NCBI RefSeq assembly: GCF_016026235.1
Contig: NZ_CP065613.1
Origin: Escherichia coli
GTDB taxonomy: Bacteria; Pseudomonadota; Gammaproteobacteria; Enterobacterales; Enterobacteriaceae
DNA: 64,000 nucleotides
Strand: one strand, 5' to 3'
The translations under genes were made by a program, and so were the position numbers. Below the pieces are notes generated by a model that made no database searches, was not told the origin of the DNA, and saw nothing but the letters and a program-made list of their open reading frames with translations. How positions within the stretch are numbered: the first letter of the stretch is position 1; each line of letters begins with the position of its first letter. Shown here piece by piece: positions 10,912 through 45,363 of this stretch.

Positions 10912-11457
<546 letters not shown>

Positions 11458-11466
11458 GAGAATTGC

Positions 11467-12258
11467 ATGAGCAGTAACTTCAGACATCAACTATTGAGTC
11501 TGTCGTTACTGGTTGGTATAGCGGCCCCCTGGGCCGCTTTTGCTCAGGCACCAATCAGTAGTGTCGGCTCAGGCTCGGTCGAAGACCGCGTCACTCAACT
11601 TGAGCGTATTTCTAATGCTCACAGCCAGCTTTTAACCCAACTCCAGCAACAACTTTCTGATAATCAATCCGATATTGATTCCCTGCGTGGTCAGATTCAG
11701 GAAAATCAGTATCAACTGAATCAGGTCGTGGAGCGGCAAAAGCAGATCCTGTTGCAGATCGACAGCCTCAGCAGCGGTGGTGCAGCGGCGCAATCAACCA
11801 GCAGCGATCAAAGCGGTGCGGCGGCATCAACGACGCCGACAGCTGATGCTGGTACTGCGAATGCTGGCGCGCCGGTGAAAAGCGGTGATGCAAACACGGA
11901 TTACAATGCAGCTATTGCGCTGGTGCAGGATAAATCCCGCCAGGATGACGCAATGGTGGCATTTCAGAATTTCATCAAAAATTACCCTGATTCAACTTAC
12001 CTGCCAAACGCCAATTATTGGCTGGGTCAGTTAAACTACAACAAGGGTAAAAAAGATGATGCGGCGTACTATTTTGCTTCGGTAGTGAAAAACTATCCGA
12101 AGTCACCAAAGGCTGCTGATGCGATGTTTAAAGTCGGCGTCATCATGCAGGACAAAGGTGACACCGCAAAAGCGAAAGCCGTATACCAGCAGGTTATCAG
12201 TAAATACCCTGGTACTGATGGCGCTAAACAGGCACAAAAACGTCTGAACGCGATGTAA
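11467..12258 (+). CDS. cpoB: cell division coordinator CpoB (YbgF), TPR protein
   Basis: 263 aa with signal peptide, coiled-coil region and TPR-like C-terminus; last gene of the tol-pal cluster. Confidence 0.9.
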   Translation: MSSNFRHQLLSLSLLVGIAAPWAAFAQAPISSVGSGSVEDRVTQLERISNAHSQLLTQLQQQLSDNQSDIDSLRGQIQENQYQLNQVVERQKQILLQIDSLSSGGAAAQSTSSDQSGAAASTTPTADAGTANAGAPVKSGDANTDYNAAIALVQDKSRQDDAMVAFQNFIKNYPDSTYLPNANYWLGQLNYNKGKKDDAAYYFASVVKNYPKSPKAADAMFKVGVIMQDKGDTAKAKAVYQQVISKYPGTDGAKQAQKRLNAM

Positions 12259-12266
12259 TGCATAAC

Positions 12267-12300
12267 ACACGACCAGAAGTCGCATTATTTCTGGTCGTGT
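12267..12300 (+). other. stem-loop downstream of cpoB (possible terminator/attenuator, no clear U-tract)
   Basis: cacgaccagaa-gtcgcatta-ttctggtcgtg inverted repeat. Confidence 0.35.
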
Positions 12301-12422
12301 CGTGCGAATCATAAGCAGTTGAGTGATCTGCATCGAAATTTTTGTTGCGCTCAAGTCTGAAATCAGTAATATATGCCGCCGTTGCCACGGGATATCAAAC
12401 AAACCGAAAGCAACGAAAAAGT

Positions 12423-12498
12423 GGGTCGTTAGCTCAGTTGGTAGAGCAGTTGACTTTTAATCAATTGGTCGCAGGTTCGAATCCTGCACGACCCACCA
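12423..12498 (+). tRNA. lysT: tRNA-Lys (anticodon UUU)
   Basis: GGGTCGTTAGCTCAGTTGGTAGAGCAGTTGACTTTTAATCAATTGGTCGCAGGTTCGAATCCTGCACGACCCACCA; cloverleaf and CCA end. Confidence 0.97.
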
Positions 12499-12525
12499 AT
12501 CGCTAAGGTGGAAGCGGTAGTAAAA

Positions 12526-12598
12526 CGTGAAGGATAACGTTGCATCAGCAACGGCCCGAAGGGCGAGACGAAGTCGAGTCATCCTGCACGACCCACCA
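12526..12598 (+). repeat. spacer repeat copy 1 ending in a duplicated tRNA-Lys 3'-end fragment (..gtcatcctgcacgacccacca)
   Basis: about 72 nt, near-identical to copies at 12815-12885 and 13119-13189; last ~19 nt match the T-arm/acceptor 3' end of tRNA-Lys. Confidence 0.8.
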
Positions 12599-12633
12599 CT
12601 AACATAGTTAGTTGTAGTATCCAGCGTAGTATT

Positions 12634-12709
12634 GGGTGATTAGCTCAGCTGGGAGAGCACCTCCCTTACAAGGAGGGGGTCGGCGGTTCGATCCCGTCAT
12701 CACCCACCA
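12634..12709 (+). tRNA. valT: tRNA-Val (anticodon UAC)
   Basis: GGGTGATTAGCTCAGCTGGGAGAGCACCTCCCTTACAAGGAGGGGGTCGGCGGTTCGATCCCGTCATCACCCACCA. Confidence 0.97.
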
Positions 12710-12711
12710 CC

Positions 12712-12787
12712 GGGTCGTTAGCTCAGTTGGTAGAGCAGTTGACTTTTAATCAATTGGTCGCAGGTTCGAATCCTGCACGACCCACCA
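12712..12787 (+). tRNA. lysW: tRNA-Lys (anticodon UUU)
   Basis: identical to lysT copy. Confidence 0.97.
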
Positions 12788-12814
12788 GTTTTAGCATCGA
12801 AGACAGATGTTAAG

Positions 12815-12885
12815 CGTGTAGGATAACGTTGCGTCAGCAACGGCCCGTAGGGCGAGCGAAGCGAGTCATCCTGCACGACCCACCA
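12815..12885 (+). repeat. spacer repeat copy 2 with tRNA-Lys 3'-end fragment
   Basis: cgtgtaggataacgttgcgtcagcaacggcccgtagggcgagcgaagcgagtcatcctgcacgacccacca. Confidence 0.8.
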
Positions 12886-12936
12886 CTAATTACGGTGGGT
12901 TCGGTGGAAGTAGTTTGTAGTATCCAGCGCAGTATC

Positions 12937-13012
12937 GGGTGATTAGCTCAGCTGGGAGAGCACCTCCCTTACAAGGAGGGGGTCGGCGGTTCGATCCCGT
13001 CATCACCCACCA
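12937..13012 (+). tRNA. valZ: tRNA-Val (anticodon UAC)
   Basis: identical to valT copy. Confidence 0.97.
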
Positions 13013-13015
13013 CTC

Positions 13016-13091
13016 GGGTCGTTAGCTCAGTTGGTAGAGCAGTTGACTTTTAATCAATTGGTCGCAGGTTCGAATCCTGCACGACCCACCA
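13016..13091 (+). tRNA. lysY: tRNA-Lys (anticodon UUU)
   Basis: identical to lysT copy. Confidence 0.97.
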
Positions 13092-13118
13092 ATTTTAACA
13101 TCAAACTCAGATGTTAAG

Positions 13119-13189
13119 CGTGAAGGATAACGTTGCGCCAGCAACGGCCCGAAGGGCGAGCGAAGCGAGTCATCCTGCACGACCCACCA
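13119..13189 (+). repeat. spacer repeat copy 3 with tRNA-Lys 3'-end fragment
   Basis: cgtgaaggataacgttgcgccagcaacggcccgaagggcgagcgaagcgagtcatcctgcacgacccacca. Confidence 0.8.
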
Positions 13190-13237
13190 ATCTTAAAGAT
13201 TGGCCCCGAGTAAAAATCTTTCAGGTAACACCCGTAT

Positions 13238-13313
13238 GGGTCGTTAGCTCAGTTGGTAGAGCAGTTGACTTTTAATCAATTGGTCGCAGGTTCGAATCCT
13301 GCACGACCCACCA
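13238..13313 (+). tRNA. lysZ: tRNA-Lys (anticodon UUU)
   Basis: identical to lysT copy. Confidence 0.97.
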
Positions 13314-13346
13314 TCCTGAATGATTAAAGCAGCATAATCCCGCAAG

Positions 13347-13422
13347 GGGTCGTTAGCTCAGTTGGTAGAGCAGTTGACTTTTAATCAATTGGTCGCAGGT
13401 TCGAATCCTGCACGACCCACCA
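13347..13422 (+). tRNA. lysQ: tRNA-Lys (anticodon UUU)
   Basis: identical to lysT copy. Confidence 0.97.
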
Positions 13423-31629: not shown

Positions 31630-31824
31630 TCACGAGGACAGAAGTTTCTCGCAATTAAAATTTATCAGTTTTACTTTCTGCTCTCTGGAAACGCCTGCTT
31701 CTTTTTTCCCTGAGAGCATTTTTTCGCATTCTGATTTCGTTAGTTTAGATTTTGAATATCTTGTCCAGCTGGTAGGAGAACCACCTTCCTTTTCAATAGT
31801 GGCTGTAATTTTATACATGAACAC
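31630..31824 (-). CDS. hypothetical phage protein (64 aa)
   Basis: ORF in the leftward early operon between the ATPase gene and xis. Confidence 0.4.
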   Translation of the reverse strand: MFMYKITATIEKEGGSPTSWTRYSKSKLTKSECEKMLSGKKEAGVSREQKVKLINFNCEKLLSS

Positions 31825-35652: not shown

Positions 35653-35934
35653 TTAAAGTTCGTGTGCCATCTGGTCTTTTTCGGCGCAGATTTCACTACA
35701 ATATTTGCGTTTCTTTTTCCTCATCATGGTTCCGTGCATGTAAATAAGTTCAGCAGTGTAAGCCTTATCAGGGCTTACTTGTCTGTCACACAGGCCATAA
35801 GCACAGGGAATTAAATCGGGATCACCTTTCTGCTGGAGGGTTTTTTTGATTATCCATAACAATTTTTTGATTCCGGTGTGTGTTATGGTCTGCTGAGGTG
35901 CAGAGGTAAAACAATAATCAAGCATAGGGTTCAT
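35653..35934 (-). CDS. hypothetical zinc-ribbon protein (93 aa)
   Basis: two Cys pairs (CAYGLC ... CSEIC). Confidence 0.4.
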   Translation of the reverse strand: MNPMLDYCFTSAPQQTITHTGIKKLLWIIKKTLQQKGDPDLIPCAYGLCDRQVSPDKAYTAELIYMHGTMMRKKKRKYCSEICAEKDQMAHEL

Positions 35935-35950: not shown

Positions 35951-36505
35951 TTATTTTAAAGAAAGTAATTGTTCCACAGTCATATTTTTAATTGCGCCCC
36001 GGTTAACAAGAGTCCATCCCTGTTTTTCCAGATAAAACCGGAAAGTCTCCAGGGTACAGACCAGTGCGCCATCAGGAACGGTTTCGGTGAATTCGACATT
36101 GCCGAATTTGTCGAAGTGAACAACCAGAGTGCGACCATCACCCGGAATCATCTTGTCAGCAGGTGGGGTGTTATTCTGGCGCAGTTCGGCCTCCATGCGG
36201 TCGAACTCAGCAATGTAGGCTTCCTTGAATGCGGCGGCTTTTTTGCCAGTGAAGCCCATCATCAGGAAAACGAAGCCGTTTTTGGTGATTTGGTACATTG
36301 GGCGTTTTTCGCCTTTGGCGTCGGTATAGGTGACGGGCTTAAAATTAAGCCGGTTAAACTCCGGCGAGCATTCGAGAGTTTCGATCTTCTGAATAACGTT
36401 TTTGTGCATTTTCCGGAAGAACTTCGCAACCGCAACAGACGTAGTGACAGCGCGACCATTTTCGATGGTTACGTCAGGGTGAGAAAGGGTAAGGATAGTA
36501 GCCAT
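35951..36505 (-). CDS. Rha-family phage regulatory protein
   Basis: MATILTLSHPDVTIENGRAVTTSVAVAKFFRKMHKNVIQKIETL... matches Rha domain pattern; GAGG RBS before this Met; ORF is open further upstream to 36799. Confidence 0.5.
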   Translation of the reverse strand: MATILTLSHPDVTIENGRAVTTSVAVAKFFRKMHKNVIQKIETLECSPEFNRLNFKPVTYTDAKGEKRPMYQITKNGFVFLMMGFTGKKAAAFKEAYIAEFDRMEAELRQNNTPPADKMIPGDGRTLVVHFDKFGNVEFTETVPDGALVCTLETFRFYLEKQGWTLVNRGAIKNMTVEQLLSLK

Positions 36506-36821
36506 GATGGCAGCCTCGATAGTCAGTTTAAATAACTCACCACCAGAGGTAGCAATCTCATGGGTGGTGAGACGCACAGGGTTGCTACAACCGGTGACTA
36601 CCGAAACCGGCCAGCCTTGCGGCTGCCCTGCACGCCCCACCATAATCTGAATGTGGCTGTGCTTGACGCATAAAAAAACCGCCTGAGCGCGGTTATGCGC
36701 AGTAGTCATCGTCGGGGTAGCAATCCCGGCCCCCGTTTTATGAGGTGCAGGTGCACTATAATTCCACCCGTTCTGGTTTTCAATAGCTACATTCAACATT
36801 TTCTCTCACCTTTCATCACCG

Positions 36822-36976
36822 AAGTGAATTTTGTGATGCGGTGCCTGGTGCCTCCAGGTGACGTTAACCAGTTAACAATTACAGTCGGCTTTCCCACCCA
36901 AACCAATAAGGACTAACATGACTTTTAACTGTGCCGCGTGCGCTTAGCCGCATTCACCGCATCACAAAATTCACTT
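36822..36976. repeat. 22-bp perfect inverted repeat pair separated by about 111 bp
   Basis: aagtgaattttgtgatgcggtg at 36822-36843 and its exact reverse complement caccgcatcacaaaattcactt at 36955-36976; the intervening DNA holds smaller palindromes (cctggtgcctccagg, gttaaccagttaac). Confidence 0.8.
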
Positions 36977-37206
36977 TAAAAAGGGCGGACATCAGCCAGC
37001 AATTAAACCGATGCCGCCAACTGGTACTTCACACAGCAATGTCGTTATTTACAACCGGAAGCGCACTCCCACCATTTAAATTTCACAGACAAGACCGACT
37101 CTTTATGGATACCGGAAATGCGCCTTCGTGTTGTGCCCGGTTTTATTTCACCACCTCCGGGCTTTGGTGGTATCTTTACTGAAGTTCTCACACAACCAGT
37201 AAGGAA

Positions 37207-37503
37207 ATGAATATGCCAACGTATCTCGCCAGAGTAGAACTATATAATGCTGAGCCAGAGGATTACGAAGGGCTTCATAAATATATGCTCTCACTAGGAT
37301 TCAGGAGAACGATCCCCCATGGAGATGGTTCGTATAATCAACTCCCGGACGGAACTTATGTTTCCGAAAAGGGCGGTGATATTTATCAAATTCGCAGCCA
37401 GATATCTGACTATGCAGACCGACTATCCGGGTATCGCGCGTCTGTTTTTGTTTGCGAATTCAGTCAATGCGCATGGTATTTATACCCCGCCAAGACCCGG
37501 TGA
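37207..37503 (+). CDS. hypothetical small soluble protein on opposite strand (cargo gene at the sieB/rex-equivalent position)
   Basis: 98 aa, MNMPTYLARVELYNAEPEDYEGLHKYMLSLGF...; AGGAAA RBS; antisense to the flanking leftward genes; its 3' end slightly overlaps a convergent gene. Confidence 0.5.
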   Translation: MNMPTYLARVELYNAEPEDYEGLHKYMLSLGFRRTIPHGDGSYNQLPDGTYVSEKGGDIYQIRSQISDYADRLSGYRASVFVCEFSQCAWYLYPAKTR

Positions 37504-37894: not shown

Positions 37895-38042
37895 CGTGCG
37901 GTGTCTTGATGAATGAAATTTAGAATAACCTAAGATGGGCGGCCAAGATTTTTATGTAGAAAAACCTAAGTTTTTTGATGTAAAAAACACAAGTGTTTGA
38001 AAGTTTGTGCTTTTTATTACAGGGTGTGGAGAAAAAAGGGGA
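37895..38042. promoter_or_regulatory. putative leftward early promoter/operator region (OL-like) downstream of the repressor gene
   Basis: direct repeats tagaataacctaag and tagaaaaacctaag sharing the CCTAAG half-site seen at OR. Confidence 0.4.
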
Positions 38043-38450
38043 TTATTTGTTTGCGCTTCTTTTGCGAGCTTTGAGTAGTTCTTCAAAAAGTTTGTTGAAA
38101 TTTTCAACTCGAGCACGCATCTCTGACAACAGGGCCTTTTGCTCTGACTCAGGCAGTGCGTCGAACAGTTGAAGTAACTCTTTTTGATCTTCTGTCAGAA
38201 TGGCTGGCTGATTATCCGGGATCGGTTCGCCTGGTTGTTTATCTTCATCCCCAAAAAGAAGCCAAGTCGGTGAGCACTGAAGCGCTTGGCTCAGTGCGAA
38301 TAATCTTTTCCCCGCCGGCTGTGTTTCATCTCTTTCCCATTGAGAAATTGTTACGTGAGCCACTTTGACCAGCTTACCTAATGCGGCCTGAGACAGTTTT
38401 AATTTTTTACGCCTATGTAAGAGGCGAGCACCGAAGGTTTCGTTTTTCAT
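38043..38450 (-). CDS. prophage repressor (HTH-XRE; cI/RacR-like)
   Basis: N-terminal HTH LSQAALGKLVKVAHVTISQWERDE; divergent from the cro-like gene. Confidence 0.75.
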   Translation of the reverse strand: MKNETFGARLLHRRKKLKLSQAALGKLVKVAHVTISQWERDETQPAGKRLFALSQALQCSPTWLLFGDEDKQPGEPIPDNQPAILTEDQKELLQLFDALPESEQKALLSEMRARVENFNKLFEELLKARKRSANK

Positions 38451-38526
38451 ATTAGGGAATTCTAATTTTTCTTGACTTAGGTTTCTCTACGATCTAGTTT
38501 CCTTAGGAAAATCTAAGGAGCTCGAT
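38451..38526. promoter_or_regulatory. divergent promoter/operator region (OR-like) between repressor and cro-like gene
   Basis: TTGACT -35-like hexamer and inverted repeat CCTTAG-gaaaat-CTAAGG. Confidence 0.5.
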
Positions 38527-38754
38527 ATGTTGAAAATTGATGCTATAGCGTTTTTTGGCAGCAAAACAAAGCTTGCCAATGCCGCAGGAGTTAGGCTGGC
38601 AAGCATTGCTGCATGGGGGGAACTGGTTCCTGAAGGTCGCGCGATGCGCCTGCAAGAGGCATCTGGCGGGGAACTTCAGTACGACCCCAAAGTTTATGAC
38701 GAATATCGTAAGGCAAAACGACCTGGGAAGGTGATTCATGAAAATCAGGCATGA
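38527..38754 (+). CDS. Cro/YdaS-like small DNA-binding protein
   Basis: 75 aa, MLKIDAIAFFGSKTKLANAAGVRLASIAAWGE...; first rightward gene. Confidence 0.6.
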   Translation: MLKIDAIAFFGSKTKLANAAGVRLASIAAWGELVPEGRAMRLQEASGGELQYDPKVYDEYRKAKRPGKVIHENQA

Positions 38755-42464: not shown

Positions 42465-42691
42465 TTTTATGGGGCACCTTTCTGATTGATTTCATATTGG
42501 CGAGGTAAGTAGAATGACTGCGGGTGCTTGAGGCTATCTGCTTCAGGCATGAACACCAAAAGGCAGATAGAGAAAAGCCCCAGTTAACATTACGCGTCCG
42601 GCAAGACGCTTAACATTAATCTGAGGCCAATTTCATGCTTTGCACATGTAGGTTAGCCTCTTACATGCCGAAAGGCAAGGAGAAGCAGGCT

Positions 42692-42847
42692 ATGAAGCAG
42701 CAAAAGGCGATGTTAATCGCCCTGATCGTCATCTGTTTAACCGTCATAGTGACGGCACTGGTAACGAGGAAAGACCTCTGTGAGGTACGAATCCGAACCG
42801 GCCAGACGGAGGTCGCTGTCTTCGTAGACTACGAATCCAGGAAGTAA
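42692..42847 (+). CDS. hok: Hok/Gef-family type I toxin (51 aa)
   Basis: MKQQKAMLIALIVICLTVIVTALVTRKDLCEVRIRTGQTEVAVFVDYESRK; in-frame upstream extension from 42635 resembles a mok-like leader ORF. Confidence 0.85.
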   Translation: MKQQKAMLIALIVICLTVIVTALVTRKDLCEVRIRTGQTEVAVFVDYESRK

Positions 42848-45052: not shown

Positions 45053-45129
45053 GGCCCTTTAGCTCAGTTGGTCAGAGCGAGCGACTCATAATCGCCAGGT
45101 CGCTGGTTCAAGTCCAGCAAGGGCCACCA
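45053..45129 (+). tRNA. tRNA-Ile2 (anticodon CAU, lysidine-type; close relative of E. coli ileX)
   Basis: GGCCCTTTAGCTCAGTTGGTCAGAGCGAGCGACTCATAATCGCCAGGTCGCTGGTTCAAGTCCAGCAAGGGCCACCA; cannot fully exclude Met by sequence alone. Confidence 0.8.
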
Positions 45130-45130
45130 A

Positions 45131-45207
45131 CCACCACTAGCTCATCCGGATAGAGCATCAACCTTCTAAGTTGACGGTGCGAGGTTCGAGTCCTCGGTGG
45201 TGGGCCA
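45131..45207 (+). tRNA. tRNA-Arg (anticodon UCU)
   Basis: CCACCACTAGCTCATCCGGATAGAGCATCAACCTTCTAAGTTGACGGTGCGAGGTTCGAGTCCTCGGTGGTGGGCCA; cloverleaf folds, C1-G72 pair. Confidence 0.75.
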
Positions 45208-45209
45208 GC

Positions 45210-45285
<76 letters not shown>

Positions 45286-45288
45286 TAT

Positions 45289-45363
<75 letters not shown>

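Follow-up and report, generated by a model that had tools for sequence, protein, structure and literature searches.

Long intramolecular duplexes within polycistronic transcripts are cut on both strands by RNase III, which separates the RNAs on either side and resets the stability or translation of the downstream message; the lambda N leader and sib, the T7 early mRNA spacers, the rnc and pnp leaders and the rRNA precursor stems are such sites. In E. coli K-12, a further site, known since 1990, lies beside the small RNA DicF of the Qin prophage, where the 72-nt DicF species is made by RNase III (Faubladier et al., 1990, cited by PMC5069750 and PMC9438474). A 2023 study in J Bacteriol described an RNase III site upstream of dicF (190-nt species) and did not mention the stem downstream of it, and neither that study nor PMC5069750 or PMC9438474 describes the stem-plus-core structure and the family relationship reported below. 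A second relevant group is the prophage-borne RNA family STnc100 (Rfam RF02076), which is confined to Enterobacterales and of which a canonical copy was confirmed by northern blot in EHEC; the PasD sRNAs (PasD1/PasD2) were reported to be STnc100-related and Hfq-dependent. Canonical STnc100 RNAs are stand-alone units of late regions (e.g., after stx2B) with their own terminators (model positions ~155-206) and no downstream ORF. The locus studied here lies in a 64,000-nt stretch of E. coli DNA (the window), in which an earlier note had drawn attention to a perfect 22-bp inverted repeat with arms 111 nt apart. This repeat is real but largely explained, being the counterpart of the RNase III site beside K-12 DicF as later papers cite that site, and the element that it closes appears, from its sequence and predicted fold, to be a remote relative of STnc100.

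A repeat search of the window returned the two 22-nt arms with 100% complementarity and a spacer of 111 nt, as the note had it, and the sequence agrees, AAGTGAATTTTGTGATGCGGTG at 36822-36843 being the exact reverse complement of 36955-36976. At up to three mismatches the 22-mer matched the two arms only in the 64 kb, and 0 of 100 dinucleotide-preserving shuffles matched. Analytically, ~2e7 position pairs within 300 nt multiplied by 4^-22 give a chance expectation of ~1e-6 for a perfect 22-mer pair, which agrees with the earlier remark that such a pair is improbable by chance. Fold prediction, which had been proposed as a check, gave a stable structure on the minus strand (MFE -63.1 kcal/mol, z = -4.7 vs shuffles) in which the element forms an independent folding domain inside a 441-nt context. 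The closing stem P1, with 22 of 22 Watson-Crick pairs, was retained in the MFE and centroid structures both in isolation and in the 441-nt context, and it has the length of an RNase III substrate (a duplex of about two helical turns, roughly at least 20 bp). Two smaller palindromes had been noted between the arms and both are present; cctggtgcctccagg is the hairpin P5, but gttaaccagttaac (36863-36876) does not stand as a hairpin of its own, the loop of which would be 2 nt, and is instead the loop plus the 3′ strand of helix P4. The parts of the element and its neighbours are given in Table 1.

Table 1. Coordinates in the window of the structured element, its parts and the neighbouring features.
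Feature	Position	Strand	Remarks
Whole structured RNA element	36822..36976	-	closing stem P1 plus 111-nt core; early-left operon, leftward transcription
P1 5′ arm	36955..36976	-	RNA AAGUGAAUUUUGUGAUGCGGUG; predicted RNase III cut ~36965-36963
P1 3′ arm	36822..36843	-	RNA CACCGCAUCACAAAAUUCACUU; predicted cut between ~36832 and 36831
Hairpin P2	36935..36952	-	U GCGGC UAAGC GC A CGCG
Short helix P3	36887..36935	-	36933-36935 with 36887-36889; encloses variable insert 36890-36932
Hairpin P4	36860..36886	-	36878-36886 with 36860-36868; loop UGUUAACUG
Hairpin P5	36844..36858	-	cctggtgcctccagg; CCUGG AGGCA CCAGG; invariant loop; stacks directly on P1
KilS/DicF-type small RNA	36978..37072	-	terminator hairpin ~36984-37019, U-tract 36978-36982; immediately 5′ of element
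Translation start region	36797..36812	-	SD-like GGUGAGAG 36803-36810; ATG 36797-36799, 22 nt past stem
DicF-like Rfam match	36983-37033	-	28.6 bits (cut-off 48)
STnc100-like Rfam match over repeat	36830-36971	-	34.1 bits (cut-off 47), E = 1e-4
IsrK Rfam match	36672-36748	-	57.6 bits (cut-off 50)
C4 Rfam match	36560-36647	-	75.7 bits (cut-off 45)
cI-like repressor	38043-38450	-	right of element

The element was assigned to the leftward early operon because the cI-like repressor lies further to the right. The small RNA immediately 5′ of it aligns over the full 98 nt of K-12 kilS (b4833), and KilS was verified by northern blot in PMC8175672. The terminator of this small RNA ends at 36978 and the 5′ arm begins at 36976, i.e., the element starts one base past the terminator. 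On the other side, between 36822 and the IsrK terminator (36677-36694), no terminator-like site was found, and an SD and ATG follow instead. The earlier description of roughly 700 bp without a convincing gene was right; on its minus strand this stretch is packed with the KilS/DicF-like small RNA, the element, IsrK and C4. Short, unconserved ORFs alone overlap the element. The accompanying description of the repeat as lying upstream of the Rha-family gene, with antirepressor control as its possible role, is misleading, since the element goes together with the KilS/DicF-type sRNA on its 5′ side and elsewhere precedes dicB, kilR or terB/tciA. A near-consensus promoter (TTGAAA, 17 nt, TATAGT; 36755-36783, minus strand) lies downstream of the ATG at 36799 and fits the start of IsrK; the IsrK-C4-Rha cassette thus has its own promoter, and a mosaic junction at 36748-36821 joins it to the element. 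Given that Stx2a phages match 36500-36747 only, which is the IsrK-C4 block (94% identity), and that homology to Rac-type phages begins exactly at 36822, the Rha cassette is a swapped-in downstream module to which the element is not tied. With IsrK, C4 and a Rha/Ant-type gene downstream, it resembles the immI region of P1 and P7 (C4 - icd - ant) and IsrK-orf45-anrP of Gifsy-1, and this immI-like cassette is a neighbour of the element with its own promoter and in a different homology block.

The cassette at 36504-36783 (minus strand) is a complete immI-like antirepressor control region, comprising the promoter, IsrK, C4, a 12-codon ORF and a Rha/Ant start at ~36504. No stop codon interrupts a 282-aa ORF (35951-36799, minus strand) across the promoter, IsrK and C4, and its frame continues into that of the Rha domain, the start of which is residue 108 of this long ORF. 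In strain CFSAN029787, the PGAP annotation has a version of 280 aa, phrog_995 gives an end-to-end match, and a diverged Citrobacter braakii copy (L177) retains the long frame. The N-terminal ~100 residues may be translated (giving two Ant isoforms, as in P1) or may be a gene-calling artefact.

Of 5426 complete E. coli genomes, 4641 carry the element by BLAST (median two copies, maximum nine), and it was also located on P1-like plasmids and in many lambdoid phages, P7 and D6. A search of other prophage genomes, as the earlier note had suggested, thus found syntenic orthologues in Rac, Qin, Tritos, 75/02 Stx and phiSTEC1589: the K-12 Rac orthologue occupies the kilS-kilR spacer and the K-12 Qin orthologue the dicF-dicB spacer, the phage Tritos copy lies between DicF and dicB, and the copies of Shigella phage 75/02 Stx and phiSTEC1589 lie just before kil. 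In P7 and D6, the element follows tRNA genes and stands just before terB/tciA. By sequence and position, the window element is orthologous to the Rac kilS-kilR and Qin dicF-dicB spacers. All 71 copies with a long stem (20-22 pairs) lie directly after an intrinsic terminator, vs none of 25 short-stem copies and none of 41 canonical STnc100 copies; P1-like phage relatives and canonical STnc100 have a closing stem of 8-10 pairs only. A start codon lies ~7-30 nt downstream in 88 of the 89 subfamily copies with enough flanking sequence, and the genes downstream of subfamily copies encode DicB (44), KilR (8), TerB/TciA (8), the long Rha ORF (8) and small membrane proteins. Element copies of the E. 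coli type in three GTDB metagenome-assembled genomes (L158, L187 and L207), labelled Nanosynbacter, Collinsella and Lachnospiraceae, most likely come from E. coli prophage DNA that contaminates the bins.

Viral contigs and a single genome of each species were scanned with a pattern, and 139 distinct copies proved true; the scan yielded 80 hits from many Enterobacterales genera, besides ~34 chance hits without the helices. The retrieval pattern fixed GGUGAAU and CACCNGGAGGCAC, so that pairing at these positions is partly ascertainment and the other columns alone are unbiased. In an RNAalifold analysis of 33 sequences from all subfamilies, P1, P2 and P5 comprised 19 pairs, of which 8 change on both sides; 99.8% of cells were paired and the covariation score was 0.465, compared with 0.176 +/- 0.014 for shuffles (0 of 500 reached 0.465) and at most 0.164 for slid partners. 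In P2, three of the six pairs show G-C to C-G swaps between subfamilies (GCGGC/GCGC vs CCCCC/GGGG), with 100% of cells paired. In P5, the loop and 5′ strand were fixed by the search pattern and the sole unbiased pair is N/N′; this middle pair is U-A in 12 and G-C in 21 sequences (99.4% of cells paired). One pair of P3 (RNAalifold, 51 lambdoid and P1-type copies) is A-U in 38 and C-G in 6 sequences. P4 and a short helix around the variable insert were found within the lambdoid and P1-like copies, and P4 has nine pairs in the Rac type and nine in the Qin type, the two types differing by two double compensatory changes. Covariation thus supports P1, P2, P4 and P5 as predicted helices. At the six innermost P1 positions, the 139 distinct copies showed 45 G.U and 0 A.C pairs, and the Qin copy maintains its stem via U.G and G.U pairs. 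Since the G.U pairs occur on the operon strand only, the element is an RNA structure and not a DNA site, and its functional strand is the minus strand, that of the leftward early operon.

The perfection of the repeat is peculiar to the window. Among 33 distinct long-stem variants, the window copy alone has a perfect 22 of 22 stem, the usual form having either 21 pairs including G.U or 10 + 11 pairs around one bulged A. The window element is a recombinant whose 5′ half is of the Rac type and whose 3′ half is of the Qin type, and the perfection of the 22-mer is therefore an accident of this copy. The window P4 combines a Rac-type 5′ strand with a Qin-type 3′ strand, which gives internal U.C and G.A mismatches that weaken the helix. 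One recombination event made both the perfect 22-mer and the two P4 mismatches (36860-36886).

Compared with the window, the Qin dicBF site 3′ of DicF has orthologous sequence at the same place, directly behind the sRNA terminator and ahead of the next cistron, and the same 21-22-bp stem. It differs in that its upstream sRNA is DicF where the window has a KilS-like RNA, and in that dicB stands where the window has the IsrK-C4-Rha cassette; the window stem is perfect and its P4 is impaired by recombination. RNA ends are mapped within both arms of the Qin stem, that of the 5′ arm resting on the DicF size as later papers give it. Counted from the dicF start at 1,649,382, the last nucleotide of the 72-nt RNA is nt 13 of the 22-nt Qin 5′ arm, a position with an error of +/-1-2 nt, the 72-nt size being taken from two later papers; the cut in the window is likewise extrapolated to +/-1-2 nt. 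In the 3′ arm, Term-seq of wild-type MG1655 reported a 3′ end at 1,649,584, 25 nt before dicB, in two growth conditions and with ~750-1035 reads (PMC7815308 supplements). This end corresponds to nt 12 of the Qin 3′ arm, as confirmed by the printed flanking sequence, and it was classed neither as Rho-dependent (score 0.95, ‘No’) nor as an intrinsic terminator (score 1.2, threshold 3.0); the classic ends in the rnc and pnp leaders appear in the same table (PMC7815308). As the pairing partner of nt 13 in the 5′ arm is nt 10 in the 3′ arm, the mapped Qin ends are opposed with a 2-3 nt 3′ stagger, taking the 72-nt size as cited. On that size, this arrangement is the signature of RNase III, and the end in the 3′ arm is a putative RNase III product. 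The two pairs between the cuts, G12-C11 and U13-A10 at positions extrapolated from Qin, include a G-C pair, and the stem thus agrees with the in vivo rule that the two pairs between RNase III cuts are well paired and include G-C (PMC6212723). The supplements of PMC7815308 report no Term-seq end inside the Rac copy of the element. In the main texts of PMC6212723 and PMC5371410, kilR is absent and dicB is absent outside citations, and a literature search for Term-seq combined with DicF found nothing.

Strong Term-seq 3′ ends also lie upstream of the two sRNAs in K-12 (NC_000913), at 1,649,368-1,649,369 (plus strand), 13-14 nt upstream of the DicF 5′ end, and at 1,418,562 (minus strand), ~60 nt upstream of KilS. 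These were presumably left on the upstream side when cleavage generated the 5′ ends of the sRNAs.

Together, these data make it probable that the inverted repeat closes a ~155-nt structured RNA of the leftward early operon that is processed by RNase III. Of the possibilities raised in the note, a structured noncoding RNA with a long stem is the one that covariation, strand-specific G.U pairs and the RNA ends of the K-12 orthologue bear out. Transcription that stops at the KilS/DicF-type terminator would give that sRNA, and readthrough of the terminator would give the element, whose ends could pair into the 22-bp duplex. Host RNase III would then cut both arms of the duplex near the middle, at ~36964 and ~36832. 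The cut in the 5′ arm would provide an alternative, longer 3′ end for the upstream sRNA, both cuts together would release a folded STnc100-related core of ~130-132 nt, and the cut in the 3′ arm would give the downstream message a new 5′ end, ~32 nt ahead of the ATG (36799). The likely outcome would be that the sRNA is uncoupled from the downstream gene, which elsewhere is toxic, and that the stability or translation of the message is reset. Structure, strand and orthology hold for the window copy and the RNA ends are mapped in K-12 Qin, while cleavage in the window phage and its consequences for the downstream message would follow by transfer from this Qin orthologue. Like the rRNA precursors, the element has a stem that encloses a large, conserved, folded RNA and not a simple loop; we know of no sequence relationship between it and the RNase III sites of lambda, T7, rnc, pnp or rRNA. 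Such processing cannot be the function of the conserved core, because the ~9-bp stems of its relatives are too short for RNase III.

The core is where the resemblance to STnc100 lies. Against the STnc100 model (RF02076), the window element covers positions 21-154 of 206 at a score below the gathering cut-off of 47 (34.1 bits); orthologues score 28-43 bits on the operon strand, and canonical copies 140-165 bits. Element and family have in common the P1/P2/P5 architecture, the invariant GGUGAAU junction, the 3′ end CACC-NGG-AGGCA-CCN-GG-CACC and covariation across subfamilies, i.e., a closing stem, a 5′ hairpin and a 3′ AGGCA-loop hairpin with compensatory changes, parts of P1 and P5 being fixed by the search pattern. 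Like STnc100, the element is prophage-borne and confined to Enterobacterales. Unlike canonical STnc100, it has no terminator of its own, its closing stem is 22 bp vs about 8, its P2 sequence is GCGGC in place of CCCCC, and its place is in the early-left operon, with an sRNA on one side and an ORF on the other. [quoted passage not shown] For annotation, this suggests that the Rfam STnc100 model or its cut-off misses this subfamily; for function, the processed stem offers a model for converting readthrough past an sRNA terminator into separate RNAs.

Tentatively, the invariant core, comprising the GGUGAAU junction, the P2 loop and the AGGCA loop, might represent a large class of Enterobacterales phage RNAs of which the STnc100 model describes one branch, and might act as an excised stable RNA of ~130 nt or as a factor-binding gate on DicB, KilR, TciA/TerB and small membrane proteins. 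If so, its occurrence between tRNA genes and before OmpL/KdgM-like porin genes would suggest a module of general use in RNA processing or factor binding. Phage tRNA arrays contain, scattered between their tRNA genes, STnc100-like cores that lack terminators (L020 340-2066; L178 10515-11175, Citrobacter braakii), and one of these cores ends 9 nt before a tRNA. The T4 tRNA cluster carries stable RNAs of unknown function, of which these cores are reminiscent. In five loci from Klebsiella, Enterobacter and relatives (L197, L193, L184, L204 and L234), a core of the CCCCC type, closed by a GUGUGGUG/CACCACAC stem, stands ~100 nt ahead of a gene for a 233-aa outer-membrane protein that matches OmpL weakly (KdgM family; 36 bits, below cut-off). 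Canonical STnc100/PasD copies were reported beside sialate esterase genes, and there may be a link between STnc100-like cores and sugar-acid uptake genes. In the late region of locus L054 (3196-5024), three tRNAs, a TerB-like ORF, a small ORF and two tandem canonical STnc100 units, each with its own terminator, are followed by AsxR on the opposite strand; TerB/TciA neighbours recur beside the canonical and the P1-like subfamilies.

Doubtful, though it deserves weighing, is the idea that the core itself is the functional product, i.e., a stable trans-acting sRNA of the STnc100/PasD kind, possibly Hfq-binding, with the stem serving only to excise it and protect its ends. This is compatible with the RNase III explanation but places the function elsewhere. 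Every copy matches STnc100 below threshold on the operon strand and shares helices and invariant junction and loop bases with the canonical family, for which both the Hfq dependence of PasD and the northern blot in EHEC are on record, and an RNA ending in the 3′ arm accumulates in K-12 despite a repressed dicBp, as the Term-seq reads indicate. However, canonical copies terminate themselves, and no intrinsic terminator or U-tail of the kind expected of an Hfq-dependent PasD-like sRNA was found after the 3′ arm; the score is under the Rfam gathering cut-off, and the tight, conserved distance to the next start codon favours a role in cis.

That distance, seen in 88 of 89 subfamily copies, would suit a cis-acting leader in which a factor (protein, ribosome or small ligand) bound to the invariant bases of junction and loops governs how the next gene is translated or how stable its message is, RNase III being secondary, yet we regard this as unlikely. 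In its favour, the downstream genes are usually small and toxic or membrane-related (DicB, KilR, TerB/TciA and small transmembrane proteins), GGUGAAU and the AGGCA loop are invariant across Enterobacterales, and related cores stand ~100 nt upstream of the OmpL/KdgM-like porin genes in Klebsiella and Enterobacter. On the other hand, the downstream genes are mutually unrelated, canonical relatives lack any downstream ORF, P4 is broken in the window copy, and no conserved pairing was seen between the element and the downstream ribosome-binding sites.

The readings as DNA fare far worse than RNase III processing of a structured RNA. The note had offered a pair of operators for a dimeric regulator, and an inverted pair bound by the prophage repressor or the Rha protein would account for perfect half-sites 133 bp apart (centre to centre) with regulatory genes nearby; we consider it very improbable. 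There were no significant extra copies of the 22-mer or of its 12-nt core (15 matches of the latter in 64 kb vs 9.2 +/- 3.3 expected), and none of the core or half-site in the cI/cro immunity region (37900-38530). Relatives preserve pairing and not sequence, with A-U, U-A, G-C and C-G at the same stem positions, and a one-strand excess of G.U mismatches would be meaningless for duplex DNA. In addition, the same element occurs in phages with different immunity regions and in P1, P7 and D6. The further suggestion of a miniature inverted-repeat transposable element in an intergenic region, which would draw on the terminal inverted repeats, the ~155-bp length, up to nine copies per E. coli genome and homology breakpoints coinciding with the element end at 36822, can be given hardly any credence, as no target-site duplication was found at the flanks (..TCATCACCG / TAAAAAGGG.., which share no direct repeat), all 71 long-stem copies occupy one syntenic position after an sRNA terminator, the interior is more conserved than the outer arms, which are unrelated among relatives, and copy number tracks prophage number.

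Two further candidates were tried and rejected. A coding role, under which the repeat would lie inside a conserved gene such as an extension of the Rha ORF, was checked: the longest Rha ORF has its ATG at 36799 with the repeat upstream of it, and the core varies across copies from 100 to 124 nt by amounts not divisible by three, which shows the element to be non-coding. The other candidate was base pairing of the upstream sRNA, by its 5′ end, with invariant parts of the element. The seed at the DicF 5′ end, GGUGACGUU, is complementary without mismatch to AACGUCACC of the element over 9 nt (chance ~0.02; L005 1886-1894 with 2052-2060), and the KilS-like 5′ end GUGCGCUU is complementary to P2 AAGCGCAC over 8 nt (window 36919-36945 with 37059-37085); no covariation was found across loci, and 27 loci have the same site alongside a different sRNA.

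Elsewhere around the element, the opposite-strand ORF that had been called a cargo gene (37207-37503, plus strand) encodes a YmfI-family phage protein (54 bits, NCBIfam cut-off 140; phrog_8894) and occupies the place of sieB in Rac, and the ORF downstream of Rha (35653-35934, minus strand) is of the YdaE family, as after kilR in Rac. Other above-threshold Rfam matches in the window lie at 31634-31812, 42522-42697, 45053-45360 and 11358-13419, all on the plus strand; the RalA antitoxin sRNA scores 216 bits, and the others are a sok RNA (antitoxin), a cluster of four tRNAs within the late region of the prophage and, in the host part, the CpoB/ybgF thermometer, after which comes the tRNA array with RtT repeats.
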